Source: Acaryochloris marina MBIC11017
GTDB taxonomy: Bacteria; Cyanobacteriota; Cyanobacteriia; Thermosynechococcales; Thermosynechococcaceae
Direction of reading: 5' to 3'
DNA: 32,000 nt
Assembly: GCF_000018105.1 (NCBI RefSeq)
Contig: NC_009925.1
Span: 6,240,001-6,272,000 of the forward strand
The notes under the pieces are model-generated. The model made no database searches. It saw nothing but the letters and a program-made list of their open reading frames with translations, and was not told where the DNA came from. The position numbers were made by a program, and so were the translations under genes. How positions within the stretch are numbered: the first letter of the stretch is position 1; each line of letters opens with the position of its first letter. Below are positions 7,638 to 24,889 of the stretch, piece after piece.

Positions 7638-7693
7638 AACTTAGGGAGCAATACTTCATCTAAAGCTTAATCGACAAATAACCCTGTAGTACA

Positions 7694-7784: not shown

Positions 7785-7798
7785 GGTCAGATAAAACA

Positions 7799-7835
7799 AA
7801 GGCATCCGGTCCCGTGGAAAGTTCTCGGATGCCTT
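7799..7835. repeat. Perfect 10-bp inverted repeat AAGGCATCCG / CGGATGCCTT with a 17-nt spacer
   Basis: Read directly from the sequence. It sits 29 nt upstream of the ATG at 7864 and shares the GGCAT core with the repeats above. Confidence 0.6.
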
Positions 7836-7863
7836 AGTCAATACCCAATCACAGGAATCAACT

Positions 7864-8241
7864 ATGCCTACTCTACTCGAAACACCGATTCTTCGCTTTG
7901 GTGTTGAGCGTCAAACCCAGCCTGATATGTGGCTGGTTCAGACTGAAGCTGATGGGATAGCCTTCATTAACGAGCACACCGAAGATCCGCTTTGCCCTCC
8001 CTATACGTTGGCTTGCATTCAGACAAAGGACTGCGGCCCCTTCGATGCTGATATCGATTTTGATGAATATTGGGTGCTGATGGTGACCCGCAAGCCAACC
8101 GCTGACGAGCGCACGACCCAGACCCGGATCGAGAACTGGGTTCTTAATCACCTTGAGCTTAAGGGTGTTCTCAGTGACTGGTTCACCGTGCCCGCCGATC
8201 AGACGGTTCGAGCTGAGAACGATTACGAGGACGAATTTTAA
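7864..8241 (+). CDS. Hypothetical acidic protein (125 aa)
   Basis: AGGA lies about 9 nt upstream of the ATG. The ORF has an acidic C-terminus (ENDYEDEF) and lies immediately upstream of the ArdC-like gene. No family recognised. Confidence 0.55.
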   Translation: MPTLLETPILRFGVERQTQPDMWLVQTEADGIAFINEHTEDPLCPPYTLACIQTKDCGPFDADIDFDEYWVLMVTRKPTADERTTQTRIENWVLNHLELKGVLSDWFTVPADQTVRAENDYEDEF

Positions 8242-8311
8242 AATCGTCCTGGGGCACCTTTGCCCCTCCTACTCCACACATACCCGCTCGCTACAAAAGG
8301 GGATTAATATT

Positions 8312-9181
8312 ATGACCACTCAATCCAAGCGTGAGAAGGCCCAGGCTAAACAACAAGCTGCATTGGAAAAGCTAGAGCAAGGCATCCTGAATATAGCCAG
8401 TGAAGCTGACTGGAGAAAATATCTAGACTTCCATTCCAAGTTCTATAACTACTCTGCCAGTAACACAATGCTCATTTATGGCCAATGTCCCGAGGCCAGC
8501 CACGTAGCAGGATATAAGGCTTGGCAAAAACTTGGGCGACAGGTCCGCAAAGGAGAGAAGGGCCTCGTTATCCTTGCCCCTTGTAAGAAAAAGGTAGAGG
8601 ACAAGGAAACGGGGGAACCAGTTTGGAGAATATACGGTTTCAAAACCTCCACTGTATTCGATATTAGCCAGACTGACGGCGATGACTTAGAGGAAACAGA
8701 TATCAAGGCCCCAACCACAGAGGCCGAGCTGTACCGCAATCTAAAGGCGTTCGGTGAGGCTCAAGGTTTCACAATCCTAGAGAAAGCCTACCCAGGCGCT
8801 TACGGCGTTTGTATCTACAAGCCTAATAGTATTGAGATCCAAGTTGATCCGCTGTTGAGCGTGGAGCTGAGAGCTAGCATCCTTGCCCATGAGTTGGGCC
8901 ATGCCTTAATGCATAGTGCGGCTGAGTATCACGACCACACCCCCACCTCAACCAAAGAACTAGAGGCTGAGTCTGTGGCCTACTGCGTCACCCAATATTT
9001 CGGAGTTGCAGAGGATCAGAAACGCTCCTTTGCTTATATCACCTGTTGGAACCGGGAAAGCGATCAGGCTCTGGGGCAATTCAAAGCATCGATGGATGCG
9101 ATCGCAAAAACAGTCAAGGCAATTATTGAAGGCATTGAAAGCGTTGCCTCCAATGAATCTAGCACTTTAGTAATTGCCTAA
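8312..9181 (+). CDS. ardC: ArdC-like protein: N-terminal ssDNA-binding ArdC-N/DUF1738 domain plus C-terminal HExxH metalloprotease domain
   Basis: YNYSASNTMLIYGQ...GYKAWQKLGRQVRKGEKGLVILAP matches the ArdC-N pattern. LAHELGHALMH is a zincin HExxH. ATG at 8312 follows AAAAGGGGA. The track start at 8153 overlaps the previous gene. Confidence 0.8.
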   Translation: MTTQSKREKAQAKQQAALEKLEQGILNIASEADWRKYLDFHSKFYNYSASNTMLIYGQCPEASHVAGYKAWQKLGRQVRKGEKGLVILAPCKKKVEDKETGEPVWRIYGFKTSTVFDISQTDGDDLEETDIKAPTTEAELYRNLKAFGEAQGFTILEKAYPGAYGVCIYKPNSIEIQVDPLLSVELRASILAHELGHALMHSAAEYHDHTPTSTKELEAESVAYCVTQYFGVAEDQKRSFAYITCWNRESDQALGQFKASMDAIAKTVKAIIEGIESVASNESSTLVIA

Positions 9182-9299
9182 TGACCTGGCTTGGGTGAGC
9201 CATTAATCACCCAACCATTTCAGATTCCAGAGAGATTTTGAAAACTTAGGGGGCAACGATGAACGGTTACACCCTCATCTGGTTCTTGTTTTGGCAATT

Positions 9300-9378
9300 G
9301 GGGTCCGACAACGATTCATGTAAAAACTGATCATAGGGCTGAAAGCTATATCTGATAGCTATTTCAGGCGACGATTTT
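9300..9378. repeat. Tn3-family terminal inverted repeat, tnpA-proximal end
   Basis: GGGGTCCGACAACGATTCATGTAAAAACTGATCATAGGGCTGAAAGCTATATCTGATAGCTATTTCAGGCGACGATTTT matches the reverse complement of 14114-14192 at about 70/79 positions (hand alignment). Confidence 0.9.
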
Positions 9379-9470
9379 AGGGTTTTGGCAAAATACGAAG
9401 TCTATTTCGGTACTGATACCCCATTCTTAAACTCTCTTTCCAACTGACCAACATAGATTTTAACCACCGA

Positions 9471-12400
9471 CTACACCAATATGGGCTCAGCCTCTTGTTC
9501 CTTTTGAGCAATCGGAATTTCGAAATTGATCGGTGGTGGATTGCGCTGTTGATCTAAGAAGAACAGCCCGAACCGATTGAGATGGTCCATCCAATAAGGG
9601 CTCAGTAATGCCAGAACTTCTGCATCATACGTGCGGCCATTTTGGGCTTCCTCATTGAGGATACGACTCATCTCTGAAACGTTGTAGAAAATGAGGCAGT
9701 TGGCCACCAGGTGATTGTATTTGATGCGCTTTCGAAGTTCAGCCCGGTTGTTGCTAGAGAGGACTTGGTTTTCACCGCCAAAAGCGATCCACTTAATAAA
9801 GCGATTAAATGCCTCGCACTTGTTGGTTTCAGCATGGATCGTTTCCTGCATTTGAGGATCGTTGATGTACTGCAGTAAAAAGATAGTTCTCAAGACGCCC
9901 CCAAGTTCATGAAAGGCTTGAAATAGCTTATTCTTACGGCTATTGGTTCCCAACTTTCTCAACAGGGTAGAGGCTTGAACTTTCCCGTCCTTAATGGACA
10001 ACGCCACCCGCAACATGTCCGGCAGGTGCGTCTCAATCAGATCCCAGTCCGTCACTTCGGTGAACAAGCTGTCCAAATGCTTGTAGCGGGTGCCCCGAGA
10101 CGGTCGATAGAACGCTAAGTTCTGCCAACCTCGAATGCGGGGCATTAGCGTAATGCCCAATAAAAATGCCAAGGCAAATACCGTACAGCTTTGGGATTGA
10201 GTATCGCCATGAATCGTGTCCGGTTGGATCTCGGAAGTATTCTTGAGCAATCCATCGAGGATGTAAACGGCTTCCCAAACACCACAGGGAATAAAGTGAC
10301 TGAACAGAGCAATGTAGGTATCGGAGATGTGGTAGTAGCCAATGCCGCCATACCCGCCATAGTGGATGTGATATTCCGCCAATAGATTCTGCTCATACAT
10401 ATCCCACTTGGTACCATCCACAGAAGCCTGTTTGCCGGACCCCCAAACCTTGGGAAGCGAAAAGCGATTGTAGGAATCGATAATCCCAGTAATGGCCTGT
10501 TGTATTTTCTCTTCACTGATATGGCGATGATGAATCCACCAGATTTGGCGACGGTCACTCCCTGGAACTGACCGTGCCAGCTGGTTGGGGCCAATGTTGC
10601 AGCCATAGCAAAATGTCGTGGTGATATAGCGTTCGACCGGATCTATGATCTTGGTATCAAAGCCAGATAGGGGCCCGAAGCACTGGGTCCAGTTGAGCCA
10701 TTTCTCGGTGTCACACAGCACATCCAGAATAGAGACGGGTTTGATCTTCCGTTCAATGAGTGCCTTCACTTCCGCCAATCCTTCAGGTAATTGACGTTGG
10801 CGTTTGTGGATCACCAGGCGGTCTTTTTTGAAACTCAAGTGAGCATTGGTGGGAAAGGCCTGATCTGCCGTCTTAGCCGCCGTTCGCAACCGCTGCTTCA
10901 TCTCTTGAACAAAGGCCTTACCCTCCGTTGGCAGATTGATCATCTTGCCATACTCTTCAGCTGAGTCCTGGTATTCTTCCCAAGAAATCAACTGGCTGTA
11001 ATAGTCCCCAAATTCATTACTGCCAGGAATATACAAATCCCCCGACTGCAGTTCCAGACTGATATGAGAGAACACGCACAACTCAAAGTAAAGGCGATGA
11101 ATTTTAGTGGGCGTAGTCTGTTGCGGGTCAGTGATCAATGACCGCCACTTGTTAGGCACCCAACTGAGATCCAGCAACGGGACAACCGCTTCATCAGGGG
11201 TGCCCTGATTGACGATCTGGGTCATCGGCACCCATTTACTGCGTTTGGACCGATGGGCTTTGATAAATTCAATCGCGTTGATTAAAGACTGGTCCTGGGT
11301 GCTAGAGCACAAGGGAAGTTGCTCTAGGAGTCGGAAGAATACGGCTCGATGGCTACGATAGAAACGAGTCAAAAAAGAGAAGTAGTTGTTGCCCACGTAG
11401 GCTAAGTGCTCTTGGCAATCGTCAATGAGCGGTTGTGGATCATCCCCAATCACAATTTTCATCGACTTGAAGCGTGTGGTGATCCGGCCTTCAGAGTCAT
11501 AGGCCAATAGAACATGCAAGAAGATATCGATGAGTTCATCCGTGCGAGCTTGCGTCCTGCGACGATAGTCACTCAGGGCTTCTGCCCCCTTGTGATGGAG
11601 CTGGCGGTCCCGTTTGATAAACATCTCCGCGAGATCATCCAGGGTGTTGGCATATTGAGTCGATAGCAAGGCCAGGGCTAAGGTATAGCGTTTAGCATCG
11701 CTCATTTCTTTCATGCGAGCGGCATCTAAAGACTGGGCCTCTGCGGCGAGGGCCTTGAGCTTGACGGCGGGAATATCCAGCAAACCGGAATTTGGGATCT
11801 GCAGATCAGCCAACCATTCCAATCGCTCAATCCACTCTTGCAGCCGCGAGAGCAAGGGTTTACCAGGGTCTTCCTTCAAGCGGTTCCACAACGATTTCTC
11901 TGCTAGAGAAGTCGACACAAATAACCGATTCAGCTTCACCCGCTCCGCCCGCTTTAAGGTCTGACTGACTTGTTCATACAGCTGAGTAGATACGGCTTGT
12001 CTGACCTGACGGGCTGCGCGATCTAGGGCAATAAAAGCGGGTAATTCCAATCGATGGCGGACCAATTCTTCAATGGCCACATTGATGAGGTCAGCGAGTT
12101 CATGTTTCGTCACTGCGGCCTTTTCCATGGACTCCTCAATGACCGCTTTGGCTTGAGGGCCATACTTGGTGATTTGTAGATACCCCCGAATAATATTCAG
12201 GTGCCGGTAACGCGTGGGGGAGCAATCATAAGTCGTCAGATCCAATTGGAAACCGTGCAGGCCAACTATAGTGGCGATGTGACGCACAGCAGCAGCGGGC
12301 ACATCACTGGTCTTGATGGCATAGCCCAAGCGCTGATAGGTTTTGAGCATCACCAAAAACCCCAATTGAGTTTGAGGACTACGGGTGAGGTGCTGCGCTA

Positions 12401-12500
12401 GCGCCATTTCCTCTTTAGTGGGAGTGTAGATAGCTGAAAGGTCTTGATCTGAAGGATTCCGTTTCAAACGTGGATAGGCGGTTTCATGTACACTGGCCAC
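9471..12500 (-). CDS. tnpA: Tn3-family transposase (DUF4158 N-terminus plus DDE_Tnp_Tn3)
   Basis: About 1009 aa with Tn3-type N-terminal features (RNPSDQDL...LGFLVMLKTYQRLGY) and a large C-terminal DDE domain. The GTG start at 12500 is preceded by AAGGAG. The track ORF extension to 12677 overlaps the upstream gene. Confidence 0.93.
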   Translation of the reverse strand: MASVHETAYPRLKRNPSDQDLSAIYTPTKEEMALAQHLTRSPQTQLGFLVMLKTYQRLGYAIKTSDVPAAAVRHIATIVGLHGFQLDLTTYDCSPTRYRHLNIIRGYLQITKYGPQAKAVIEESMEKAAVTKHELADLINVAIEELVRHRLELPAFIALDRAARQVRQAVSTQLYEQVSQTLKRAERVKLNRLFVSTSLAEKSLWNRLKEDPGKPLLSRLQEWIERLEWLADLQIPNSGLLDIPAVKLKALAAEAQSLDAARMKEMSDAKRYTLALALLSTQYANTLDDLAEMFIKRDRQLHHKGAEALSDYRRRTQARTDELIDIFLHVLLAYDSEGRITTRFKSMKIVIGDDPQPLIDDCQEHLAYVGNNYFSFLTRFYRSHRAVFFRLLEQLPLCSSTQDQSLINAIEFIKAHRSKRSKWVPMTQIVNQGTPDEAVVPLLDLSWVPNKWRSLITDPQQTTPTKIHRLYFELCVFSHISLELQSGDLYIPGSNEFGDYYSQLISWEEYQDSAEEYGKMINLPTEGKAFVQEMKQRLRTAAKTADQAFPTNAHLSFKKDRLVIHKRQRQLPEGLAEVKALIERKIKPVSILDVLCDTEKWLNWTQCFGPLSGFDTKIIDPVERYITTTFCYGCNIGPNQLARSVPGSDRRQIWWIHHRHISEEKIQQAITGIIDSYNRFSLPKVWGSGKQASVDGTKWDMYEQNLLAEYHIHYGGYGGIGYYHISDTYIALFSHFIPCGVWEAVYILDGLLKNTSEIQPDTIHGDTQSQSCTVFALAFLLGITLMPRIRGWQNLAFYRPSRGTRYKHLDSLFTEVTDWDLIETHLPDMLRVALSIKDGKVQASTLLRKLGTNSRKNKLFQAFHELGGVLRTIFLLQYINDPQMQETIHAETNKCEAFNRFIKWIAFGGENQVLSSNNRAELRKRIKYNHLVANCLIFYNVSEMSRILNEEAQNGRTYDAEVLALLSPYWMDHLNRFGLFFLDQQRNPPPINFEIPIAQKEQEAEPILV

Positions 12501-12504
12501 GACC

Positions 12505-12978
12505 TCAAACTCCTTGGATCTGCTGCTGGGTTTGATAGGGGGTTCCGCAATAGGGGCAAAAACGATGCTTGAGGGAGGTAATGGGTTCTTGGCAGCTGAT
12601 ACAGCGATCTTGTAGTCGAGTGCCGCAAGCAAAACAGTGTTTAGATCTGATGTCCATCCACAGCGGCTCTGGAGCACTGCCTATGCGCCAACACTGGGGG
12701 CAGAATTTCAAAGTTTGCGTGGCTTGGATGGCTCGACCTCGGCTGATGGAATCCAAGTAATCAGGTGGAATTTGTAAGGCACAAGCTAAGCCCTGACGAG
12801 TTTTATGATTGAGGGACAACGTTTTGCCGCGCTCCAGCTTACTCAAGCTTTGGGCATGAATATTGGCCTTGAGAGCGACTTCCTTCTGGGTGAGACCGAG
12901 TCTGACTCGCAGACGGCGAAGATACTCAGCCAAGGATTCATCGGCAAGGGGGAGGGAATCGGATTCTAAAGGTTGCAT
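12505..12978 (-). CDS. XRE-family HTH protein with C-terminal double zinc ribbon
   Basis: HTH: LGLTQKEVALKANIHAQSLSKLERGK. Four CxxC pairs: CPQC, CFAC, CISC, CPYC. Start is taken at MQPLES (12978). Alternative ATGs lie at 13020 and 13086. Confidence 0.7.
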   Translation of the reverse strand: MQPLESDSLPLADESLAEYLRRLRVRLGLTQKEVALKANIHAQSLSKLERGKTLSLNHKTRQGLACALQIPPDYLDSISRGRAIQATQTLKFCPQCWRIGSAPEPLWMDIRSKHCFACGTRLQDRCISCQEPITSLKHRFCPYCGTPYQTQQQIQGV

Positions 12979-13058
12979 GGATTTATCACTGGATATTTCT
13001 TCCCCAGAGGTATAGTGCATGAGGCGAAGTGAGTCTTTAGATTTAAGCAAAGCTCCAG

Positions 13059-13955
13059 ATGAATCAGCCTTTAGCCACCGTGGCAACCCAGTTTTTAGAT
13101 CGCCCCCATCTGGCTACGAGCACAGCCCGCTCCTATGAACTGACCTTGATGCCGTTACTGAAGCGATATGGCAGCTGGTCAGTGGAATTATTAGATGCTG
13201 ACATCCTGTCTGAGTATCTCAATAGCCTGACGCACCTGTCTTACACGACTCACCATCGGCATCAAGCCACCCTCAAGGACTTACTCAACTTTGCTGTGCG
13301 CCAACGGTATATTCGCAGCAATCCCATTGCCCAGTTAGAGCATCGTTCACCGGATAAAGCCAAGGGAGAGCATCTAAGTGATCAGCCCATTCGGTTCTTG
13401 AAACCCGAGCAATTGACCACCCTATATCAAGCTATTTATAACGATGCACGTTTGTATGCACTGGTGAAGCTATTGCATCACAGTGGGGCCCGCATCTCAG
13501 AAATCTTGGCTTTGGATTTAGCAGAAGTCGATCTGGGGCAACGGCAATTTCAGGTCGTGGGTAAAGGCAACAAAACCCGTTGGTGCTTTTACAGTGAAAA
13601 TGCAGCTGCAGCCTTGCAGACCTATATTCAGCACTATCGCTATACGCCTTCGCCAGCATTGTTCACGGCTAGAAAGACCCCTACGAGTCAAGTGACCCGT
13701 CTGAGTTACAGAACAGCCCATCATCACTGGCATCAATCGATTCAAGGCTATCCACAAATCCAAGGGATAAGGTTGCACGATCTGCGTCATACTTTTGCGA
13801 CAGAGCGAGTGGGACTAATGGGGTTGGAGGAACTCAGAGCGTTAATGGGGCACCAGCATATCCAGACCACCCTCCGATATCAGACCGTCACATCTGAACA
13901 AGCAAAAGGGGCAGCGCAAAGAGCATTTCAACATTTAGAAAATGCAGTTCAATAA
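13059..13955 (+). CDS. Tyrosine recombinase/integrase (likely the transposon cointegrate resolvase)
   Basis: N-terminal SAM-like domain, then SGARISEILAL (Arg), LHDLRHTFAT (HxxR) and LMGHQHIQTTLRYQ (His...Tyr). All catalytic residues are present. Confidence 0.9.
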   Translation: MNQPLATVATQFLDRPHLATSTARSYELTLMPLLKRYGSWSVELLDADILSEYLNSLTHLSYTTHHRHQATLKDLLNFAVRQRYIRSNPIAQLEHRSPDKAKGEHLSDQPIRFLKPEQLTTLYQAIYNDARLYALVKLLHHSGARISEILALDLAEVDLGQRQFQVVGKGNKTRWCFYSENAAAALQTYIQHYRYTPSPALFTARKTPTSQVTRLSYRTAHHHWHQSIQGYPQIQGIRLHDLRHTFATERVGLMGLEELRALMGHQHIQTTLRYQTVTSEQAKGAAQRAFQHLENAVQ

Positions 13956-14113
13956 TGATGTTCTCAAGAAGATGACGTGGGTAGGTTAGAATTGACCATC
14001 TTACCGAACACATTGGAGATCTCTCAGAGTATTGAAACTACTCTGCAATCAAACAGTGAGTTTAAAAACGGGTCCAAAACAACGATATGAACTTCTACCT
14101 CACCTCAAAACAC

Positions 14114-14192
14114 AAAATCACCGACTGAAATGGCTATCAGATATAGCTTTCAGCCCTATGATCAGTTTTTGTACGAATCGTTGTCATACCCC
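14114..14192. repeat. Tn3-family terminal inverted repeat, recombinase-proximal end
   Basis: The reverse complement reads GGGGTATGACAACGATTCGTACAAAAACTGATCATAGGGCTGAAAGCTATATCTGATAGCCATTTCAGTCGGTGATTTT. Confidence 0.9.
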
Positions 14193-14609
14193 TTCGGATT
14201 GCTAACCCTGGAAGCGACGGGTCTAGAACAGCGAAAAACTAATAAGGCCAAATGCTCTCCCCTAAAAGAGGCTGTATTCAAAGTGCTTAAGCAGGTAGCA
14301 GGCCAAGACATTTTGATGATCGTTGCCCTAAACGAACTGATGGATCAACTCACGGTCACTCGCATCAATAGCTGGGAGACCTTCTTTAAGCAACTTGCCA
14401 TTAAGCGAACTGAACTGGAATCTCTGGCCGATACCGTGTATGAACTCTCGGGGGTTTCTCCTGGGGCGGTTGAAGACCTCGACGCTGTGATTGTGCCCCT
14501 CTACAACGAAGCAAAAGGCCAAGACATCAAAGCGATTAACTGGGAACGTCGCTCTTGGTGGGACTGGGCACACAACCATTTGCTTGAGCAGGTTAGCAAA
14601 GCAGCTTAA
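14193..14609 (+). CDS. Hypothetical protein with unresolved 5' end
   Basis: The track ORF 14130..14609 has its only ATG and first 21 codons inside the Tn3 inverted repeat. The native start is therefore lost or is a non-ATG codon downstream. No family recognised. Confidence 0.4.
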   Translation, partial: FGLLTLEATGLEQRKTNKAKCSPLKEAVFKVLKQVAGQDILMIVALNELMDQLTVTRINSWETFFKQLAIKRTELESLADTVYELSGVSPGAVEDLDAVIVPLYNEAKGQDIKAINWERRSWWDWAHNHLLEQVSKAA

Positions 14610-14700
14610 CCCTCTCCCCCTGTCTGTACCTGGGTCAGCCCTGTGGCGATCCCCCCCAGCAATCGGGGCTGGCCTTTCCTCACCACTTTTGGAGAAAACC

Positions 14701-15081
14701 ATGCAAGCCCATCACCTTAATTTGCCAGAATTTCTACTCAACCCGCCTACGGTTAACCTCGCCTATTCTCCGGTGGCAGTCATGACGGTAGCAACGGCAA
14801 AAAACCTGATGCAATCCCAGGAGTTATTGCTCAGTGGTGCCCAGAAACTGTTTAATCCAGCGGTCTGGCCCCAGCTAGAACCAGAGATTGAGCGCATTCC
14901 CTTTGACCGACAAAAAGCCCAGTGCTTCCGTGATTGTGTCGCCTATCTGATGGCCGAGGCGACGACGCTGAGATCGGAACGGCGGCATGTCGATGCCCTC
15001 AAACATATGGAGACGGCACTGATGCTAGAGGCACTGATCCATGGCGGCTATGTCGATGTGCCATCCATTTCAGAACAGTAA
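14701..15081 (+). CDS. Hypothetical protein (126 aa)
   Basis: ATG at 14701 is preceded by GGAGAAAACC. The longer track ORF from 14491 overlaps the previous gene. No family recognised. Confidence 0.55.
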   Translation: MQAHHLNLPEFLLNPPTVNLAYSPVAVMTVATAKNLMQSQELLLSGAQKLFNPAVWPQLEPEIERIPFDRQKAQCFRDCVAYLMAEATTLRSERRHVDALKHMETALMLEALIHGGYVDVPSISEQ

Positions 15082-15154
15082 AAGGCATCGCCAAGCTCAG
15101 GACAAGTCAAACGATGCCTTTTATTGAACGAACCATTCAACGAGGTTATTCAAA

Positions 15155-15487
15155 ATGAATCATACAACTCTTCCCCGACTAGTTATCGACAGCATTGCTC
15201 TGCCTTCCTACGAACTCCATGCCAGACCGACTGGTGAGAACGACCGCAAGCTCAATGTCTTTTTCGGCAGTCGGTTGATCGGGTATGTCTACATCAACTT
15301 TATCCAGGGTCAATCCAATTACGTCGGCACCACGCTCAGACATCAGTCCTTCGGCCCTTATTCTCGCAGGATGGAAGCCGCTGAGGCTGTCTTAGAAGCG
15401 TTCAATGCAGGACTCACGGATGAGCAACGGCTGAGGGTCGCTCTTGCTCATGAGATGGCCGAGAACATGACCGTCATTGCTTGCTAA
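15155..15487 (+). CDS. Hypothetical protein (110 aa)
   Basis: GAGG lies about 10 nt upstream of the ATG. Same strand and tight spacing with its neighbours. No family recognised. Confidence 0.55.
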   Translation: MNHTTLPRLVIDSIALPSYELHARPTGENDRKLNVFFGSRLIGYVYINFIQGQSNYVGTTLRHQSFGPYSRRMEAAEAVLEAFNAGLTDEQRLRVALAHEMAENMTVIAC

Positions 15488-15519
15488 TCCCCAACAGCTA
15501 GAGATTTGGAGTATTCATC

Positions 15520-15930
15520 ATGCCCACTATCCACATTGCCAATCTGAGAAAGTCCCGGCAGCTTCAACCCGGTGTTCGATGTGATCGGGGGACTCCTTTA
15601 GGCAATCCTTTCCATATGTTCGCTGAATCAGAGCGAGATCGCTGCATTGCGGCTTTCCGAGTCTTCTTGTATGAGGTTGCCATTCTGGGAAATGAACCTA
15701 GCCAAGACTTGATTCGCAGGATTGCTGAGCAGCACAAGATTATGCCCAGCGGTAGTTATAAACCATTCGGTCGAGGTGCAATGATGGCAGCGCTGGAGGC
15801 GCTGGGCCAGAAGTCTGAAGTAACGTTGCTGGGCTGGTGTCATCCCAAACCCTGTCACTGTGATGTGATCAAGGCTTTCCTTGATTGGAAGTGCCCAACC
15901 CCCCAGCAGCAAACATTGGAGGTTCTGTGA
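15520..15930 (+). CDS. DUF4326-like protein
   Basis: CDRGTPLGNPF near the N-terminus and LLGWCHPKPCHCDVIKAFL near the C-terminus match my recollection of the DUF4326 pattern. GGAG lies upstream of the ATG. Confidence 0.65.
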   Translation: MPTIHIANLRKSRQLQPGVRCDRGTPLGNPFHMFAESERDRCIAAFRVFLYEVAILGNEPSQDLIRRIAEQHKIMPSGSYKPFGRGAMMAALEALGQKSEVTLLGWCHPKPCHCDVIKAFLDWKCPTPQQQTLEVL

Positions 15931-16316
15931 TGCCGATGATTCGGGCACGATACCCCGATAACTGGGATGAGATTGCGTTGCAGGTCAAGGATGCGGCTGA
16001 CTGGTGCTGTACTGAGTGCGGTAAACCCTGTCGAAAGCCGGGGGTTGAGTGGCTACACTTCTCTTTCTGGCTGATGATTACCCACCCTGAATGGTTCCCG
16101 ATCACTTCAGAGAGGGAGGAACAGAAGCCTCAGCGATTCACTCTCACAGTGGCGCACCTTGACCAAGATCCGCAGAATAATCACCCAGACAATCTCAAGG
16201 CCCTGTGTGCGCCGTGCCATTTGAAATTTGATGCGCCATTCCGAAAAGCCAATGCTTTCACCAAGCGGGAGTGGTTTGGACAGATGAAGTTGGAGGATTT
16301 GACCAATGAAACGTAA
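15930..16316 (+). CDS. HNH endonuclease
   Basis: CTECGKPC ... LTVAHLDQDPQNNHPDNLKALCAPCHLKFD is the HNH/zinc-finger signature. The ATG overlaps the DUF4326 stop (TGATG). Confidence 0.85.
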   Translation: MPMIRARYPDNWDEIALQVKDAADWCCTECGKPCRKPGVEWLHFSFWLMITHPEWFPITSEREEQKPQRFTLTVAHLDQDPQNNHPDNLKALCAPCHLKFDAPFRKANAFTKREWFGQMKLEDLTNET

Positions 16317-16348
16317 AAGGGCATATTGAATTGCTGAAATACCTGAGC

Positions 16349-16666
16349 TTAAGAATCAAACTTCATCCAGCCAAGACATAGCTTTTTCATACAATTCCCC
16401 CAAACTAGCAAGCCAATACCCATCCACTCGACTTTTTTACCGTCAATAAAACCACCATCTCTAAGGTTAATACCGGCATTCCAATCAATCGCTAACTCTT
16501 CACGCATTTCATCAGTGACCATTTCATGATCAATGAATTCTTGAGCCATACAATCACACATTTCTGTGGCCATCGAATCACTCATGAATTTTAATGAGTG
16601 ATTCATACAGGATTGGAATAACTTCGACTTCATTGACTGATCGGCAGAAGATGGCGGTTCATTCAT
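16349..16666 (-). CDS. Hypothetical Met/Cys-rich protein (105 aa)
   Basis: ORF only, with 12 Met and 6 Cys in 105 residues. No family recognised. Confidence 0.4.
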   Translation of the reverse strand: MNEPPSSADQSMKSKLFQSCMNHSLKFMSDSMATEMCDCMAQEFIDHEMVTDEMREELAIDWNAGINLRDGGFIDGKKVEWMGIGLLVWGNCMKKLCLGWMKFDS

Positions 16667-16710
16667 TCAATTCATCCTTATGAATGCAACAAGGATTTAG
16701 AGCCCAAAAC

Positions 16711-16915
16711 CTAACTGTACCTGTCGTTCCTTTCTAGCACCTCCTGGAAAGGTTCTGGTTGATCTGATTTTTCTGGACAATATCTTTGATACCCAAAGCG
16801 ATCGCAATGTTGTCCCACCTCCGGTTCCCCTTCTTGATCCACCCTGAGCTTCCCTGCTAAGTCCCCAATCAGCTCCTGACCCCGCTAGCGATGCGGTGAA
16901 GTGACTTCAAACGTG
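16711..16915 (-). pseudogene. 3' fragment of a PD-(D/E)XK nuclease gene paralogous to 20482..21270
   Basis: 16745-16915 aligns by eye with 20525-20700 at roughly 70-75% identity. It translates to ELIGDLAGKLRVDQEGEPEVGQHCDRFGYQRYCPEK, compared with EDMAMKLRCDQEWKPVTGQHCDRCGYQKYCPAK. An in-frame TAG at 16885-16887 interrupts it and nothing homologous lies further upstream. Confidence 0.75.
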
Positions 16916-17186
16916 ATTTTTGGGCCATATCACAAATAAATCAGACTCAATCTTCGAAGGTCCTGGTAATTAGCTCTAAAACCTAAGATCACCCTCTAAA
17001 TCACCGATTATCACGCCTAGCTTGTGATCCAGCTTAGAGAAAATCTTTGACAGAGCCGATAGTTTACTTACAGAGAGAAAAACAAATCCAAAACAAGCAA
17101 TCTAATTCATTAGAAAGTTTGAAATGATTCTCTCTTATCAGTACCGATCAACGTTCATTTTCTTATCAATTGCAGGATAATCCATC

Positions 17187-17498
17187 ATGCTAAAGCCAAT
17201 CAAAGTAACGCTGCTAGGCATTATGGCAGCAACGACAGCAACAATTGCCATCCCCCAAGCAAACGCTTACTCTTCTTTGGTTGGGCAACAGTCTGAAGCC
17301 ATAGAGCAGAATGATAGTTCACTCGTTGCCTCTCATCGCCGTTTCCGCAGAGGTCGTAGAGTTCGACGAATTCGCTGGCGCAGAAAGTGGGTTTGCTATC
17401 GACGCCCCCATGTGTTCTATCGTCATGGACGTAAAATCGTGAAGTTCAAGCGTCATTGCTTCTGGAAAAAGTATCGCCATTCTGGCCATCATTTCTAA
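17187..17498 (+). CDS. Secreted precursor of a hyper-cationic Arg/Lys/His-rich peptide
   Basis: AGGA lies upstream of the ATG. The product has a signal peptide (MLKPIKVTLLGIMAATTATIAIPQANA), an acidic 22-aa segment, then a 54-aa tail with 17 Arg, 6 Lys, 7 His, 2 Cys and no acidic residues. Confidence 0.5.
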   Translation: MLKPIKVTLLGIMAATTATIAIPQANAYSSLVGQQSEAIEQNDSSLVASHRRFRRGRRVRRIRWRRKWVCYRRPHVFYRHGRKIVKFKRHCFWKKYRHSGHHF

Positions 17499-18480
17499 GT
17501 AGATACGGACTGAATTTACACCTTAGCTACGATTAACCCGTACTCCTCCCATATAGCGATCTGTGGACTGATCTAAAGGACTAACCCTGAAAGGGCAGTT
17601 CATCGATTTTGGAGTGAAGATTTTGGATCGCTAGATTGAAGAAACAGGTGGCGGCTATGAACAGAACCAATCAGGACTTTAAAGAATTTCTATGGTCCTT
17701 CATTTGAGTATTCGTTGCTATCCCCCAGTAAGATGAGCGCTCATCGGGTGATACCACTGCTCCAATCCCGTCTCATCCCCCACTACAGGATCAAAGAATG
17801 CACGAATGACTGAAATTATCGTGTATTTGTGCCAGGGGAAACAGCATGTTTGCCACTCTAAATCGGACCGAGCTTGCCGAGGTGGCCGCAATATCCAACT
17901 GTAAGTCTTTGCGACATTGGACTTTAATGATCCTACAAATGAGGTGGTATGAGCCTTGGCTTTCAGTTGTGTTGAGCATTTGAGCTATTCCCCATCACCA
18001 CTGATGATTCATTACGGAAAGTTGGTGGAGTCATCGTCACACAACCATCAACAGTTTGAAGAGAATATCCATATTTCAAAAACCCACCAGAACTCAATCT
18101 TGAGTACGGCATACCCTGTATGGGACTTCGAGCAGTGGTAAAACCTTTATTGCTTTGAATTTTTTTACTGAACTTTCCACTGAATAAATCTGAACTTTTC
18201 AGGATTTTATCTACCAAGAATATTGGCGATATTGAGGGCATCAAAGTTAAAGGAAGCAAGCTAAACCATTATATCTACTGGGTTACTGAGTTTACATCTT
18301 AGTTGTTGCCTCCTGGCAAACAACTCTTACCACCAAGCTTAGCCCTGACTTCAGTACTCAGTACTTACTCATCCAGATAACATTTCTGGTTTTCAAATGG
18401 CAGATGAGAAATGGTCTGCAAGCTTGTCATGCCTAATTTTTGATTTTTCACTCACATGTTGACTCAAATACTAAACTCCG

Positions 18481-19068
18481 ATGCTATTAGAAACATCTTC
18501 TTCAGCTCAAGAAATCATTGTCATCAATCTAGGCTTTGCATTTTGTGGTGGAGCAATAAAATACATTGATGATGCTTTTGATTCTAGTGATCATGGAAAA
18601 ATTTTAGCGATGATTTTTGCTCCAATTACAGGAGTTATATGTTATTTGCTCATAGCAACTGATATTGCAGCAGCGACAATTCTATTAGCTATTATGCTAG
18701 GAGTCGCCCTCAAAGGGAAAATCGATACAGTAGGTCATTTACTAGCATTAGCCATTGTTCTTTTACTTTTATATGTAAATCCTCCTGAAATCATGTTACT
18801 TCCCTGGCTAGTTTTAGGTCTCGCGGGTTTCGCTGATGAAATAGGGAACGATTTTGTTGACTCTCGGCCTAATCTCTTAAAAAGAGCTTCTTTTTGGAGT
18901 GGAACGAAATTCACCTACTTTTTTCTTGAATACCGTTGCTTCATGAAGGTGATGATGATAATTCTCTTCTTTATGAATATATTAAGCTGGCACTATTTAG
19001 TCGCTTTCCTGTTCTTTGATCTTGCATATCATCTTACGGGTACTTGGTCAGAACACTGGATAGCCTAA
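18481..19068 (+). CDS. Polytopic membrane protein with two Asp-rich motifs
   Basis: Five to six hydrophobic segments. Motifs YIDDAFD and FADEIGNDFVD. No family recognised. Confidence 0.55.
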   Translation: MLLETSSSAQEIIVINLGFAFCGGAIKYIDDAFDSSDHGKILAMIFAPITGVICYLLIATDIAAATILLAIMLGVALKGKIDTVGHLLALAIVLLLLYVNPPEIMLLPWLVLGLAGFADEIGNDFVDSRPNLLKRASFWSGTKFTYFFLEYRCFMKVMMIILFFMNILSWHYLVAFLFFDLAYHLTGTWSEHWIA

Positions 19069-19346
19069 GCCAATATTTACTTGGAACATATTTTGTTCCA
19101 GTAAAACTCTAAGTTATGCAATGAGAAGTAAGGACATCTAGAATACCTATTTCTCTAAATGTCCTTTAAAAAAACCGAAGCAACGTGATATTGCATAAAA
19201 GACAATGACAACTATCAAAAAATTAGTTAATACATGAATAAAGACAACTGCAATAGCGAGCTATAAGTCATGCTCAACCATGAAACCTAAAGATAGAAAT
19301 TTGGATTATAAATCTACTTTTTATATCACCAATCACATCATGCTTT

Positions 19347-20291
19347 ATGTCTAGAAATATAACGATTGAAGAGCAAGGTATAAGGTTAAGCATATTGGGC
19401 AACCTCTTCATGGCAGCCCTTGGCCTTTGTTTTGCTAGCTTATCCCACTCAGAAATGATTCTTCTAGATGGAGTATTTTCTTTAATTAATCTAGTTATTG
19501 CTTATCTATCTCTCAAGATATTAAGACGATCCAAACAGTCAAACGATTACTATAATTCTATTCCCTCAATTTATTTTGAACCATTGATAAACTTAGTAAA
19601 AGGCGTCATCTTAACTATTGTCTGCCTCTTAGCTTTTGGGTCTTCAGTAATTATTATCCTAAACGGTGGTCATGCTATATCTACAGGAAAAGCCATTTGG
19701 TATGCACTATTGGCAACATTAGTCTGTATGACTATTGCGCTCAAGCAAAGAAAAAGAGCAAAAGCATGTAATTCTTCACTCATTGAAGTAGATGCCAAAA
19801 GTTGGTTCATCGATGGTTTATTGAGCGGAGTTGTAGTCTTAGTTTTTACAATTGTGTTTTTCTTGCAAAATACAACATTAGCAATATTCTTACCCTACGC
19901 TGATCCTATTCTAGTTATTTTCTTGTGTTTAATAGTAGCTCCTATTCCTGTGGAGATTGTAAAGGAGAACTGGCCTAAATTAGTAGGGGAAAAATATGAT
20001 GTCCAGCTTGAATATAAAATCATTGATATTATAGACAAACATATTCCAAAGACAACAATACAAGACTACTATGTTAGTCATGGATACTTAGGTGATAAGC
20101 TTTACGTGCAATGTCATCTTTTAGTAATTGAAGAAATAAGTCAGAAGTTAAGTTTAGCCGAGCAGGATAAAATTCGTGCTTTTCTTTATCAGAAGCTAAG
20201 AGATGACTTTCCTAGCCTAGCCATTGATATAAATTTCATATGTGATCCAATATGGGTTGAAAGAAGGATATTGCATGTGAGTAAAGCTTGA
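19347..20291 (+). CDS. Cation diffusion facilitator (CDF)-like transporter, divergent
   Basis: Six TM segments plus a C-terminal cytoplasmic domain. CDF-like TM2 (SHSEMILLDGVFSLINL) and TM5 (SSLIEVDAKSWFIDGLLS) patterns are present, but the usual His positions appear substituted. Confidence 0.6.
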   Translation: MSRNITIEEQGIRLSILGNLFMAALGLCFASLSHSEMILLDGVFSLINLVIAYLSLKILRRSKQSNDYYNSIPSIYFEPLINLVKGVILTIVCLLAFGSSVIIILNGGHAISTGKAIWYALLATLVCMTIALKQRKRAKACNSSLIEVDAKSWFIDGLLSGVVVLVFTIVFFLQNTTLAIFLPYADPILVIFLCLIVAPIPVEIVKENWPKLVGEKYDVQLEYKIIDIIDKHIPKTTIQDYYVSHGYLGDKLYVQCHLLVIEEISQKLSLAEQDKIRAFLYQKLRDDFPSLAIDINFICDPIWVERRILHVSKA

Positions 20292-20465: not shown

Positions 20466-20481
20466 TATAAATTCAAAAAAA

Positions 20482-21270
20482 TCACAATCCCAAAGCCAAC
20501 TGCACTTGCGTAACCTCCTTAGCCTCTTGCGGTAGGGGTTCTGGTCTAGTATTTTTCGCGGGGCAATATTTCTGATACCCGCAGCGATCGCAATGCTGTC
20601 CCGTCACGGGTTTCCATTCCTGATCGCATCTGAGCTTCATCGCCATATCTTCAATCAGAGATTGGGCTTGCTGGTGATGGTCAGGTGTGACCTCATAGGT
20701 CAGTTTCTCGTTAGAACGCAAGTAGATGAGACTCAGGCGTTTGAGCGCTTTCTTGTAGATCTGTTCCAGAATCAGATAGTAAAAACCCAATTGGATATCC
20801 ACTGATGGAGGAGGATTAACGGATTTGCTTGTCTTGTAATCAATCAGTTCCAGACCATCATCGATATAATCCAAGCGATCATACCGACCAGACAGGGTAA
20901 ATTCGATATTACGGACTTGGAGATTTGCCCTGACCTTTGTCTCAATCCCCAGCGGTTTGCGGATTTGGGGGAGTGAGGAAATATACCGCTCATAATAAAG
21001 CTGTAGTGCTACCCACCCCTCATGGACCTGAGTTGGGGTCAATTCACTCGTATGCTGCTGCCAACAAACGGCAAACCAATCGAGGGAAGGAAGAGGGTAA
21101 GCGTAGTTCCAATCCTTGTAGACATTGGCTAACGCTGCATGGAGAGCATTGCCAAGCTTGGTGGAGCCGAATATGGTTGGTGAAGGTAATTTATGCTCAT
21201 ACCTAAATTGATAGGATTTTGGGCACTGTCCGTAGGTTTTGAGCTTGGTGGCTGACAGGGAATAGGACAT
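20482..21270 (-). CDS. PD-(D/E)XK nuclease, Cas4/RecB-like with a four-Cys cluster
   Basis: N-terminal YGQCPKSYQFRY, the core GRYDRLDYIDDGLELIDYKTSK (D...ExK), and C-terminal CDRCGYQKYC. This arrangement is typical of Cas4/AddB-type nucleases with an Fe-S cluster. Confidence 0.85.
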   Translation of the reverse strand: MSYSLSATKLKTYGQCPKSYQFRYEHKLPSPTIFGSTKLGNALHAALANVYKDWNYAYPLPSLDWFAVCWQQHTSELTPTQVHEGWVALQLYYERYISSLPQIRKPLGIETKVRANLQVRNIEFTLSGRYDRLDYIDDGLELIDYKTSKSVNPPPSVDIQLGFYYLILEQIYKKALKRLSLIYLRSNEKLTYEVTPDHHQQAQSLIEDMAMKLRCDQEWKPVTGQHCDRCGYQKYCPAKNTRPEPLPQEAKEVTQVQLALGL

Positions 21271-21915: not shown

Positions 21916-23034
21916 TCAAACTGTGGAATCTGTTTCTATCCAATCGGGTAAATATTCAGAGTTCAGATTGTCATAAGTTGATAAGGTCTCATGATCATGA
22001 ATAGATGGGAGCTGAAGGAAAGGAAGCTTTCCAGAAGCTGGCATAGTATTTTTTGCAGATACCAAAGGCAAAGCCTTTTTCTTCGGGGGTAAAGGCTCTG
22101 CGACTTCGTCAGCAGCTTTGTTTAATCGCTCCTGTCCATATCTCTGGGAAGATAGCTTCGATGGGTAGGCAGCATCTACAGTTTTTTTAGCCAAAGTTCG
22201 CTGGGGTAGAATCACATTTTGAAATACGAATTCAACCGTTTCAAATTTGAGCCAGCCCCGAGACACCAAGATTTCTCCAAATCGCATTTCCGTAGAATCT
22301 TGATCCGATAAGACAACTTCTACTTGAGCCAAGGACAATAAGCCTGCATCAACTAGGTAACTACCAATGCGTTTAATGCCAGGATAGCGGGATGCATCTG
22401 TCCGACGATGTACTGTTTGTTTTTGTCTCAAACGGTTTTGGCGTTTTTTTGACTGAGTTTTATTAAAGTGCTTTTTCGGTTTGGAGGGTGTGGTGAGAGA
22501 GGGTTTTTCTGTACTTTTCAGCCAACTCAACATATTCAATGGGTTTAATCGCATCCAATGGCCCGAAATTTGAATCGTGATGATACCTCGCTCACAGACC
22601 AAGTTTTGGATAGGATATAAAACACCTCGATAGAGGATAAGTAAACTCATTAAAGAGCGCTGTTTATTCTCTTTTTCATACCTCCACCAGGCTTGTAATA
22701 AGTCTAGGGAATTAGTAAAGTGAACACTATAGTTTTTAGGAATATCAATAGGTTCATATTCATAAAAACCTGAAATGTTTGACTGGCGGATGGGCAAACA
22801 TTTTTGCTTGGCCATAGATTCATGCAACTGTGACCAAAAGCTAGACTTATAACGAATTGAGCTAAAGCGTCGTTTACCAGATAATTTAGCTGTAGCAATT
22901 AATCCTTCAGATTTAGCTAATAGTTGCAAAGTATCTCCAATTGGCTCAAACCTAAGCTCAGCATTGCTCTCAAATGCTGAGTAGCCTGAAAGATAACTTG
23001 ATACAAATACTTTTAAAAGTTCGGCATTGTTCAT
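21916..23034 (-). CDS. Hypothetical protein with a central basic linker and an MshEN/T2SSE_N-like domain
   Basis: RIGSYLVDAGLLSLAQVEVVLSDQ - DSTEM - RFGEILVSRGWLKFETVEFVFQNV comprises two tandem 24-residue motifs separated by 5 residues. The N-terminal 180 aa are unrecognised. Confidence 0.6.
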   Translation of the reverse strand: MNNAELLKVFVSSYLSGYSAFESNAELRFEPIGDTLQLLAKSEGLIATAKLSGKRRFSSIRYKSSFWSQLHESMAKQKCLPIRQSNISGFYEYEPIDIPKNYSVHFTNSLDLLQAWWRYEKENKQRSLMSLLILYRGVLYPIQNLVCERGIITIQISGHWMRLNPLNMLSWLKSTEKPSLTTPSKPKKHFNKTQSKKRQNRLRQKQTVHRRTDASRYPGIKRIGSYLVDAGLLSLAQVEVVLSDQDSTEMRFGEILVSRGWLKFETVEFVFQNVILPQRTLAKKTVDAAYPSKLSSQRYGQERLNKAADEVAEPLPPKKKALPLVSAKNTMPASGKLPFLQLPSIHDHETLSTYDNLNSEYLPDWIETDSTV

Positions 23035-23504: not shown

Positions 23505-24889
23505 GGCTCTCTGGGAATTAGCGTGTAGCAGTCCTACATTTAGTGTGTTTCCTTTTTCATCCCTATGGAATGATCTGAGGTAGTACTTCAGAGCAATGGC
23601 GTAATGGATAACTCAATTCGCATCCCGCTCAACCTTCCTGATATTCGAGTTCTAGAGCTATCGAAGACTGAGAGAGGGGATTGGCTCATCAAGATTGAGA
23701 GTACGCTTCAAGGAACAACCTGTCATCAATGCGGACGTGAGATTACTGACCTCCATTGTCATGATCAGCCTTTTCGGATTCGTCACCTGCCATTATTTGA
23801 AGTCCCCGTTTACTTAGAAATTCGGCCCAAGCGTTATCGATGCAAGTATTGCGATGACCATCCCACAACAACTCAACATTTAGAATGGCACGAACCTCGC
23901 AGTCCCAATACAAAAGCATATGAGCGTTGGCTTCTGCGAATCTTGATCAATTCAACGGTCTCAGATGTTGCCAGAAAACTAGGCGTTAGTGAGGATATCG
24001 TCAGTGGAATCATTGATCGTTGGATTGCCGCTCAAGTTGACTGGAGCGAATATGCAGACCTCAAAGTTATGGGGATGGATGAGATTTCTCTCAAACGAGG
24101 CCATCGTGATTTTGTGGTTTTGATCACGATTCCTACGACGGATGGGGTGGATATATTGGCAGTTCTAGCCGACCGTAAACAGCAGACAGTGGCAAATTTC
24201 CTTCAATCGATTCCCATTGATTTACGCCAAACCATTGAGCGCGTCTGTACGGACATGTACCAAGGATTTGTCAGTGCAGTCCGAGAACAATTGCCGCAAG
24301 CCAAAATTGTCATTGACCGCTTTCATGTGACCAAAGCCTATCGTAATTGTGCTGATACGGTTCGTAAACGTGAGGTCAAACGTCTACGACGAGAGCTCTC
24401 TAAGCAAGAGTATGACAGCATCAAAGGCGCGATGTGGCCTTTTAGAAAACGACCAGAGAATCTGAAAGAGTCAGAGCAACAACTCCTTGAGCGATTGTTT
24501 GCTTATTCTCCACAACTGAAACAGGCGTACAACCTCCGAGAGAAACTCACGCAGATATTTGAGGGCAGGTACACCAAGCACGGAGCTAAATGTGCCATCC
24601 GTGCTTGGTGTAAACAAGTACTCAAGAGTGACATCAAGGAATTCGATTGTTTTCTGACCACTATCAATAATTGGATGGACGAGATGACCAACTATTTCCT
24701 GGAGGGGTGGACCAGTGGTTTTGTGGAAGGATTTAATAACCGAGTCAAAGTCTTAAAAAGACGATGCTACGGTATTTTCGATATTGAAAGACTCTTCCAA
24801 AGGATTTCTCTTGACCTCAATGGGTATCAGACATTCGCTGTGACCTAAACACTATATCTAGCGGCTACCACGCTAATTCCCGGAGAGCC
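23505..24889 (+). mobile_element. Intact ISL3-family insertion sequence (1385 bp)
   Basis: Imperfect ~26-bp IRs: GGCTCTCTGGGAATTAGCGTGTAGC (left) versus GGCTCTCCGGGAATTAGCGTGGTAGC (right, reverse complement). Flanked by identical 8-bp ACCTTTCC. Contains a single full-length transposase. Confidence 0.95.
23604..24848 (+). CDS. ISL3-family transposase
   Basis: N-terminal zinc finger (CHQCG...RYRCKYC), an HTH, and a DDE_Tnp_ISL3-type C-terminus (GMDEISLKRGH..., VCTDMYQGF..., GFVEGFNNRVKVLKRRCYG). Confidence 0.95.
   Translation: MDNSIRIPLNLPDIRVLELSKTERGDWLIKIESTLQGTTCHQCGREITDLHCHDQPFRIRHLPLFEVPVYLEIRPKRYRCKYCDDHPTTTQHLEWHEPRSPNTKAYERWLLRILINSTVSDVARKLGVSEDIVSGIIDRWIAAQVDWSEYADLKVMGMDEISLKRGHRDFVVLITIPTTDGVDILAVLADRKQQTVANFLQSIPIDLRQTIERVCTDMYQGFVSAVREQLPQAKIVIDRFHVTKAYRNCADTVRKREVKRLRRELSKQEYDSIKGAMWPFRKRPENLKESEQQLLERLFAYSPQLKQAYNLREKLTQIFEGRYTKHGAKCAIRAWCKQVLKSDIKEFDCFLTTINNWMDEMTNYFLEGWTSGFVEGFNNRVKVLKRRCYGIFDIERLFQRISLDLNGYQTFAVT

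Follow-up and report, generated by a model that had tools for sequence, protein, structure and literature searches.

Within a 32,000-nucleotide stretch of DNA from the chlorophyll-d cyanobacterium Acaryochloris marina MBIC11017 (referred to here as the window, meaning the whole stretch that was analyzed), a protein-coding open reading frame (ORF) with an ATG start at 17187..17498 (+) encodes a 103-aa precursor, whose sequence is exactly that quoted in an earlier, sequence-only reading of this DNA. Judging from comparison with its homologs, this peptide gene is genuine, protein coding and under selection, and the peptide represents an orphan family that is confined to one genus. By analogy with known peptides, we tentatively favor, at somewhat less than even confidence, the view that the product is an exported antimicrobial or interference-competition peptide that would act on lipopolysaccharide (LPS) and anionic membranes. 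The family is new and is best seen as resembling gene-encoded, secreted, cystine-stapled cationic hairpin peptides, and the overall picture of the gene is that of a self-contained, regulated and dispensable accessory gene.

A genuine gene of a family confined to Acaryochloris

Behind a signal peptide and a 22-residue spacer, the precursor ends in a 54-residue tail with the composition that had previously been read from the letters, namely, 17 Arg, 6 Lys, 7 His, 2 Cys and not a single Asp or Glu; 11 of its residues are aromatic. The two cysteines, C70 (codon at 17394-17396) and C91 (17457-17459), are 21 positions apart and enclose 20 residues; the first count had put them 22 apart. The earlier placement of the gene in an AT-richer stretch holds for the noncoding flanks (GC content of 0.417 over 520 nt upstream and of 0.420 over 982 nt downstream) but not for the coding sequence (CDS) itself, in which the GC content is 0.481, compared with a window mean of 0.441.

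The homolog search that the sequence-only reading had suggested returned 15 homologs under purifying selection, all of them from Acaryochloris. Thirteen relatives, with 61 to 99% identity, came from a search of 5.8 billion proteins; the remaining two, a divergent member (P0014, 54%) and a truncated copy, a pseudogene, emerged from a profile search. An exhaustive phmmer search of 1.84 billion cluster representatives matched nothing but the representative of the family itself, the gene turned up in just three Acaryochloris metagenome-assembled genomes when 185,579 GTDB species-representative genomes were scanned by pattern, and a tblastn search against 72,556 plasmids and 50,697 phages yielded zero matches. 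Family searches of Pfam (E ≤ 10), NCBIfam and PADLOC with the peptide were all empty, as was a profile search of the PDB by sequence, and the literature searched contained no report of this or any comparable peptide from Acaryochloris or other cyanobacteria. The earlier remark that such a precursor is unusual in bacteria was thus upheld to the extent that no relatives outside Acaryochloris appeared in the searches run.

Given the odd composition of the product and the lack of a Pfam or other family match, the ORF might in principle be a chance product of Arg-codon-rich DNA, a scenario that the sequence-only reading had itself named as its possible refutation, or it might owe its conservation to an overlapping noncoding or antisense feature. 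We consider the probability of either to be practically negligible. Among seven independent coding sequences, pairwise ratios of nonsynonymous to synonymous substitution rates (dN/dS) range from 0.085 to 0.24, with dS values of 0.2 to 1.8, near saturation; all indels across the family are in frame and are located in the poly-Arg arm or the C-terminal tail described below; frame +1 alone is open in every copy of the gene; and the start codon and the Shine-Dalgarno (SD) sequence are conserved across orthologs. The chance-ORF reading is excluded because dN/dS is low, indels are in frame and only frame +1 is open, and an antisense or alternative-frame gene was rejected, the other frames being closed in all copies. 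As for a noncoding feature, an Rfam search of 16300-18500 gave no family at the gathering score; its two subthreshold matches, at chance level, both fell outside the ORF.

Export signal and acidic spacer

The Sec-type signal proposed earlier stood up well in the family alignment, in which the signal is almost invariant and its A-x-A site invariant. We made the assignment by rule, from the n/h/c architecture of the sequence, following the -3/-1 rule and the positive-inside rule for signal peptides (PMC9360617). An n-region, MLKPIK (+2), precedes a Thr/Ala-rich h-region of 16 residues (VTLLGIMAATTATIAI) and the c-region PQANA; Ala occupies positions -3 and -1 of the predicted cleavage site and Pro occupies position -5, with AIPQANA, directly before a Tyr, being invariant in the family. 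No other part of the protein is as constrained as the signal peptide, for which the ratio of nonsynonymous to synonymous differences (pN/pS) is 0.088, compared with 0.36 for the spacer and 0.14 for the hairpin; such constraint is unusual for signal peptides. The charge is +2 before the hydrophobic segment and -1 over the first 15 residues after it, which, taken with an h-region this short and the invariance of Pro...A-x-A, fits a cleaved Sec signal. Two other types of exported protein were considered and rejected: a lipoprotein, as there is no lipobox Cys at +1 (the first Cys is residue 70), and a twin-arginine translocation (Tat) substrate, as MLKPIK contains no twin-arginine motif.

The segment that follows the signal had been cast as an anionic propiece neutralizing the cationic tail. 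This idea did not survive the arithmetic: the 22-residue spacer carries a net charge of -3 and the tail one of +23, and because the precursor without its signal still amounts to +20, the spacer cannot neutralize the tail. For that reason, we prefer a role in Sec compatibility. Reportedly, as described by Andersson and von Heijne and by Kajava et al., the first ~15 to 20 mature residues of Gram-negative Sec substrates are neutral or acidic, and positive charges in this region block translocation; one would expect a +23 cargo that followed the signal directly to jam or to become inverted. We propose that the spacer is primarily an export-initiation region for the cationic cargo: with no positive charge early in the mature part, Sec would be able to start translocating this cargo. 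Conserved spacer residues in the family alignment include Q34, Q35, E37, E40, L46 and V47. The spacer is possibly a propiece as well, in which case it might be cleaved off afterwards at the conserved LVAS junction; beyond this [ST]LV[AS]S junction, the family alignment offered nothing that could serve as a second processing site in the precursor.

A predicted cystine-stapled hairpin

The first part of the 54-residue tail is a poly-Arg arm over which AlphaFold2 confidence was low and whose length differs among orthologs through in-frame gain or loss of RRV/RW units. Its RWRW and RRKW motifs resemble known R/W antimicrobial motifs. For the part that follows, AlphaFold2 with a 14-sequence alignment predicted two antiparallel strands (64-79 and 82-97) joined by a turn at H80-G81, at a predicted local distance difference test (pLDDT) score of 84 to 96, and a single-sequence run on the 54-mer returned the same strands (pLDDT, 72 to 90). 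In the predicted register (i+j=161), C70 faces C91 and W68 faces W93. A cross-strand cystine beside a Trp-Trp pair is a standard hairpin staple. The layout of eukaryotic antimicrobial peptides (AMPs) recognized in the sequence-only reading therefore gained support from this high-confidence prediction, with its two invariant cysteines facing each other. Altogether, 16 hairpin residues are invariant (W64, K67, W68, C70, R73, P74, V76, Y78, R82, K83, V85, K88, R89, H90, C91 and W93), and K-versus-R identity is fixed at six positions of the family alignment. Along the predicted hairpin, cationic belts (64-67/94-97, 72-73/88-89 and 79-82) alternate with hydrophobic/aromatic ones (68-71/90-93 and 74-78/83-87). 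As modeled, the mature product must bind polyanions strongly.

Very basic beta-ribbons are typical nucleic acid binders, and the weak Foldseek matches of the models were generic long hairpins, namely, pore-forming toxin stems, HU, PriB, NusG and ribosomal proteins (E ≥ 1.0). One could therefore imagine that the precursor is not exported at all and that, with its signal acting as an uncleaved anchor or simply being ignored, it serves in the cytoplasm as an Arg-rich module binding RNA, DNA or the ribosome. Massive positive charge after a hydrophobic segment disfavors translocation under the positive-inside rule (PMC9360617), which would agree with such a location. However, the charges flanking the hydrophobic segment (+2 N-terminal to it; -1 for the 15 residues that follow it) have the orientation of a signal peptide, the A-x-A site with Pro at -5 is canonical and invariant, the h-region counts just 16 residues, and a Sec substrate carrying a cationic cargo would require just such a conserved acidic spacer. 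Moreover, since the two cysteines are invariant and structurally paired in the model, they would be sensible only outside the cytoplasm, in an oxidizing compartment. We regard a cytoplasmic function as quite unlikely.

The precursor ends in a His-rich tail that is present in only about half of the family members, ortholog ends reading VRHF or HHGGHHF; being variable or absent, it is not a core feature of the family. With 7 His and 2 Cys in 54 residues, and motifs such as RHCHW and HHGGHHF, the peptide might be thought to handle metals in the periplasm by binding Zn, Ni or Cu, all the more so as a gene for a CDF cation-efflux transporter lies 1.85 kb downstream in the window and a ZraP/CpxP-like LTXXQ/Metal_resist gene is found upstream in several loci of one of the other genomic contexts (context A, see below). 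Yet H90 is the only invariant His, about half of the orthologs do without the His-rich C terminus, and 23 Arg and Lys residues are not needed for metal binding. The neighbors, moreover, vary by context, and the CDF gene itself, with a GC content of 0.345, is separated from the peptide gene by 982 nt of noncoding DNA and another gene. A metal-handling role therefore seems improbable to us.

A small cassette in three genomic contexts

The peptide gene was found in three contexts. In context A, it adjoins a DUF1350 gene, a gene for a 494-aa protein and uvrB; in context B, it lies between a GNAT gene and a gene for a transglutaminase-core protein; and in context C, that of the window, it is located between a 105-aa ORF on one side and genes for a 195-aa membrane protein and the CDF transporter on the other. 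DNA similarity among the contexts extends only from about position -225 to the stop codon, except that contexts A and B share ~90 nt further downstream. What the three have in common is a cassette of ~0.65 kb, comprising an operator, a -10-like box, a structured 5' untranslated region (5'UTR), the SD sequence and the CDS. One copy in context A (L018, 4700-5240, also in L019) has decayed: another codon stands in place of the ATG, what is left of the operator is degenerate, the reading frame is cut short by a TGA after the second Cys, and the 3' end is lost. The gene is therefore dispensable in some lineages.

In the window, the cassette is closely preceded by a 155-nt fragment at 16705-16860 (ORF 16711..16842, minus strand) that shares 79% identity with the 3' end of a PD-(D/E)XK/Cas4-like nuclease gene at 20482..21270 (minus strand; match at 20475-20635) and retains the motif QHCDR.GYQ.YCP. 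Fragment and full nuclease gene bracket a 3.6-kb segment that contains the genes for the peptide, the 195-aa membrane protein and the CDF transporter, an arrangement that, from the sequence, looks like an integration scar at the 3' end of the nuclease gene. Similarly, in context B, a fragment for the first ~78 residues of the transglutaminase-core protein (47 to 61% identical) is found upstream of the cassette (L009, 1487-1723; L010, 7159-7392), with the full gene downstream. These partial duplications in the window and in context B suggest insertion or recombination rather than a fixed ancestral site.

Contexts A and B also have two conserved stem-loops in the ~90 nt after the stop codon (L001, 8310-8400; L010, 8328-8420; with equivalents in L004, L006, L007 and L009), one with a CTCAGGCCTGAG core flanked by ATTGAT/ATCAAT and one formed by GCTCTAGG...CCTAGAGC with compensatory changes. 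They are not recognizable in the window and are probably terminator or stabilizer elements.

Proposed function

We infer the following route, from export and disulfide formation, through the role and processing of the spacer, to the target. The invariant Sec signal would direct export, with signal peptidase I cutting after AIPQANA and the spacer acting as proposed above. In the oxidizing periplasm, C70 and C91 would close the 34-residue two-stranded hairpin, rich in Arg, Lys, Trp, Tyr and Phe, that follows the floppy poly-Arg arm. The polycation would then bind polyanionic envelopes (LPS and anionic lipids), and target membranes might become permeabilized or disorganized, as happens with arenicin, tachyplesin and lactoferricin-type peptides. 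Three things speak for the antimicrobial interpretation: by analogy, an architecture like that of arenicin, capitellacin, tachyplesin and lactoferricin; the R/W motifs; and the way in which the gene behaves as an accessory gene. Its distribution over three unrelated contexts, in island-like DNA and with one pseudogenized copy, is typical of competition genes.

Several observations weigh against this interpretation. In a check for a nearby immunity or export function, which the sequence-only reading had advised, we found no conserved immunity, processing or outer-membrane export gene beside the peptide gene in contexts A, B and C, so that release from the cell and self-protection are left unexplained. 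Moving a charge of +23 through Sec is energetically unfavorable. A residue-by-residue reading of the predicted register showed that the faces of the hairpin are not cleanly amphipathic, and Foldseek searches of both models against the PDB gave nothing significant (best E, 1.0 to 1.4). Finally, the strong purifying selection and the fixed K/R identities, as seen in the alignments, would fit a specific ligand at least as well.

That last point leads to a real, if lesser, possibility, in which the hairpin would stay on the producer's own surface or matrix and bind LPS, sulfated or acidic exopolysaccharide (EPS) or extracellular DNA. Rather than a weapon, it would then be a cross-linker or wet adhesive, working through cation-pi chemistry in biofilm formation, epiphytic attachment or envelope stabilization. 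The charge of +23 and the 11 aromatics in 54 residues fit such a role equally, strong purifying selection with fixed K/R identities would fit a specific endogenous ligand, and the lack of an immunity gene would be natural if the peptide were not toxic to its producer. The nonsignificant structural analogs include nucleic acid-binding beta-ribbons (HU, PriB and ribosomal proteins). The biofilm-attached lifestyle of Acaryochloris (PMC9324425) is in line with this possibility too. On the other hand, no matrix or EPS genes are linked to the peptide gene, and since the gene is patchily distributed within Acaryochloris, was not found in any other GTDB species-representative genome of the scan and has decayed in one lineage, the peptide is not a core envelope component.

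Returning to the antimicrobial interpretation, a bolder version can be formulated, on which we speculate while rather doubting that it holds in full: the peptide would be an independently evolved, host-defense-like weapon and the first bacterial example of a Sec-exported, unmodified, disulfide-stapled giant beta-hairpin polycation, with an acidic spacer as its Sec adaptor, encoded by a mobile, self-contained unit of ~0.65 kb that brings along its own operator and structured 5'UTR.

Upstream regulatory region

Conservation of cis elements was assessed in nine orthologous upstream regions from the three contexts (Table 1). The most conspicuous element is a palindrome that, from its sequence, is presumed to be a transcription factor-binding site and that, together with a direct copy of its half-site, includes two conserved GATC sites. 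In 19 loci (~190 kb of Acaryochloris DNA), ATCAC-N9-GTGAT was found only upstream of the peptide gene, decayed copies being without it, and the 32-kb window contained a single exact match to the palindrome, with two-mismatch matches at chance level. NtcA, CRP, Fur and LexA boxes were rejected as candidates for the operator by eye, against consensus sequences.

Table 1. Positions of features of the peptide gene and its upstream region in the window
Feature	Position	Strand	Remarks
Direct copy of operator half-site, AGATCAC	16986..16992	+	Invariant in 9/9; 22 nt (start to start) before left palindrome arm
Palindromic operator-like site, TATCAC-N9-GTGATCCAG (GTGATC(CAG))	17009..17032	+	Arms invariant in 9/9; spacer variable
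-10-like box, TAGTTT (fits TAnnnT)	17060..17065	+	TA..TT invariant in alignments A2 and A4
Small 5'UTR hairpin, TCTAAT-TC-ATTAGA	17101..17114	+	Orthologs have longer CTATT...AATAG
Conserved 5'UTR box, GATCAACGTTC (consensus, AATCAGTCAACGTTC)	17146..17156	+	Nearly invariant in alignment A4
SD-like AGGA	17174..17177	+	9 nt before ATG; GGAGGA in most orthologs
Sec-type signal peptide, residues 1-27 (MLKPIKVTLLGIMAATTATIAIPQANA)	17187..17267	+	Predicted signal peptidase I cleavage after A27
Acidic/polar spacer, residues 28-49 (net -3)	17268..17333	+	Ends in conserved [ST]LV[AS]S junction
Poly-Arg arm, residues 50-63 (HRRFRRGRRVRRIR; net +9)	17334..17375	+	Length variable among orthologs
Predicted cationic aromatic beta-hairpin, residues 64-97 (net +14, 9 aromatics)	17376..17477	+	AlphaFold2
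His-rich C-terminal tail (HSGHHF) and stop codon	17478..17498	+	Variable in orthologs

We place a putative transcription start site near 17072-17073, within a conserved AGAGAGA tract downstream of the -10-like box. A sigma-70 consensus scan returned no full promoter, and no terminator was found after the peptide gene. Within the leader, the small hairpin appears in most single-sequence minimum-free-energy folds, and its counterpart in alignment A4 (helix 2) has 95% of cells paired, with compensatory changes in two of five pairs; we propose it with moderate confidence. The GGAGGA of orthologs can pair with an upstream UCUUCU (83% paired, no compensatory pairs), which weakly suggests an anti-SD helix in these strains, and an outer 5'UTR stem, AGAGAG/UCUCUC, is possible. 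The leader matched no Rfam family. Judging from these conserved elements, the gene is probably transcribed from its own promoter under control of the operator, giving an mRNA with a structured 5'UTR of ~115 nt.

Surroundings of the gene in the window

The two genes directly downstream of the peptide gene occupy 18481-20291 and encode the 195-aa protein, a multi-pass membrane protein without a family match, and the CDF cation-efflux transporter. The GC content in both is 0.345, compared with 0.441 for the window, and they were probably acquired horizontally. On the other side, positions ~7100-16320 form a mobile-element island with an ArdC-like gene, a Tn3 family transposase gene (9471..12677, minus strand), a gene for a helix-turn-helix regulator, a tyrosine integrase gene (13059..13955), a DUF4326 gene (15520..15930) and an HNH-like ORF (15885..16316). 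Left of 16124, contig L013, a near-identical metagenome sequence, departs from the window. Farther downstream, 11 kb from the peptide gene, a DUF1350 protein is encoded at 28885-29745 (minus strand) that is 54% identical to the DUF1350 protein encoded directly 3' of the peptide gene in context A; it could be either a paralog or a remnant of ancestral synteny. A tRNA scan of the window found none.

Save for one insertion sequence (IS) element, the window is 99.98% identical to AP026075, the chromosome of A. marina MBIC10699 (PMC9324425). This element, a 1.14-kb DDE_3 IS that is present in AP026075 (L012, 14818-15958) and absent from the window (at ~22003), splits a gene for a 372-aa protein (21916..23034, minus strand) bearing an MshE-like cyclic di-GMP-binding motif (NF053729). 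Conversely, the ISL3 transposase gene at 23604..24848 is missing from contig L013. Strains that are nearly identical thus differ in IS activity.

Significance

To our knowledge, disulfide-stapled beta-hairpin host-defense peptides have so far been an animal specialty. If the Acaryochloris peptide were antimicrobial, such peptides would extend to bacteria, its 34-residue hairpin would offer a new scaffold for peptide-antibiotic design, and a factor used in competition would be revealed where Acaryochloris lives, in biofilms and in association with ascidians. If, instead, it were to bind the producer's matrix or DNA, it would be an extracellular polycation of a new type, serving adhesion or the structure of biofilms. 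Whatever the function, spacer and cargo together make up a natural test case for Sec substrates with extreme positive charge. Few regulons are known in Acaryochloris, and the invariant operator and the 5'UTR define a small regulatory module in a cyanobacterium.

Comparison with known systems

The basic beta-ribbon arms of HU/IHF, PriB and ribosomal protein extensions are similarly long, highly basic and two stranded, as reflected in nonsignificant matches (E ≥ 1.0). They are, however, parts of larger cytoplasmic folds and have neither a signal peptide nor a cystine, unlike the Acaryochloris peptide.

Among bacterial peptides, the bacteriocins with double-glycine (GG) leaders and the ribosomally synthesized and posttranslationally modified peptides (RiPPs) of cyanobacteria are likewise encoded by small, often strain-specific genes for secreted peptides. 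The leader of the Acaryochloris precursor lacks a GG motif and has instead a Sec signal with an A-x-A site, and none of the neighborhoods examined contained a C39-peptidase ABC transporter or a modification enzyme, on which grounds we rejected a GG-leader bacteriocin. Closer in mode of export are the Sec-dependent class II bacteriocins of Gram-positive bacteria, such as enterocin P and lactococcin 972, which do without a double-glycine leader and ABC transporter. Like these, the Acaryochloris peptide is ribosomal, unmodified and cationic, is encoded by an accessory gene and has a classical Sec signal with a predicted signal peptidase I site. It differs from them in that there is no homology and no adjacent immunity gene in any context, in its far higher charge and in the acidic spacer between signal and cargo. 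Since the producer is a diderm cyanobacterium, the Sec step would, furthermore, reach only the periplasm or the thylakoid lumen.

The closest parallels are found in the beta-hairpin host-defense peptides of animals, i.e., arenicins, capitellacin, nicomicins, tachyplesins/polyphemusins, protegrins and lactoferricin B, although there is no sequence match or significant fold match to any of them and the producer here is bacterial. The Acaryochloris hairpin is longer by about a factor of two, with 34 residues (two 16-residue strands) compared with 17 to 25 in the animal peptides, and carries an invariant Pro in strand 1, one cystine only and an extra poly-Arg arm. Its pro-region, of 22 residues and net charge -3, contains no BRICHOS or cathelin domain (Pfam, E ≤ 10), and selection on the peptide is strongly purifying, not diversifying as in the animal peptides; it is not a member of the BRICHOS-related or cathelicidin-type families. 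In other respects, the likeness is considerable. On either side of the cystine are K/R-W-(x)-C and C-x-W motifs, a feature also of arenicin and tachyplesin. The order of signal, acidic pro-region and C-terminal cationic peptide is common to both sides (PMC7761999, PMC6265681), as is an Arg/aromatic-rich two-stranded antiparallel hairpin with one or more cross-strand cystines, which is predicted in the case of Acaryochloris. With a charge of +14 and nine aromatics in 34 residues, the predicted hairpin falls within the range of beta-hairpin AMPs for both charge density and aromatic content (PMC7761999, together with general knowledge).

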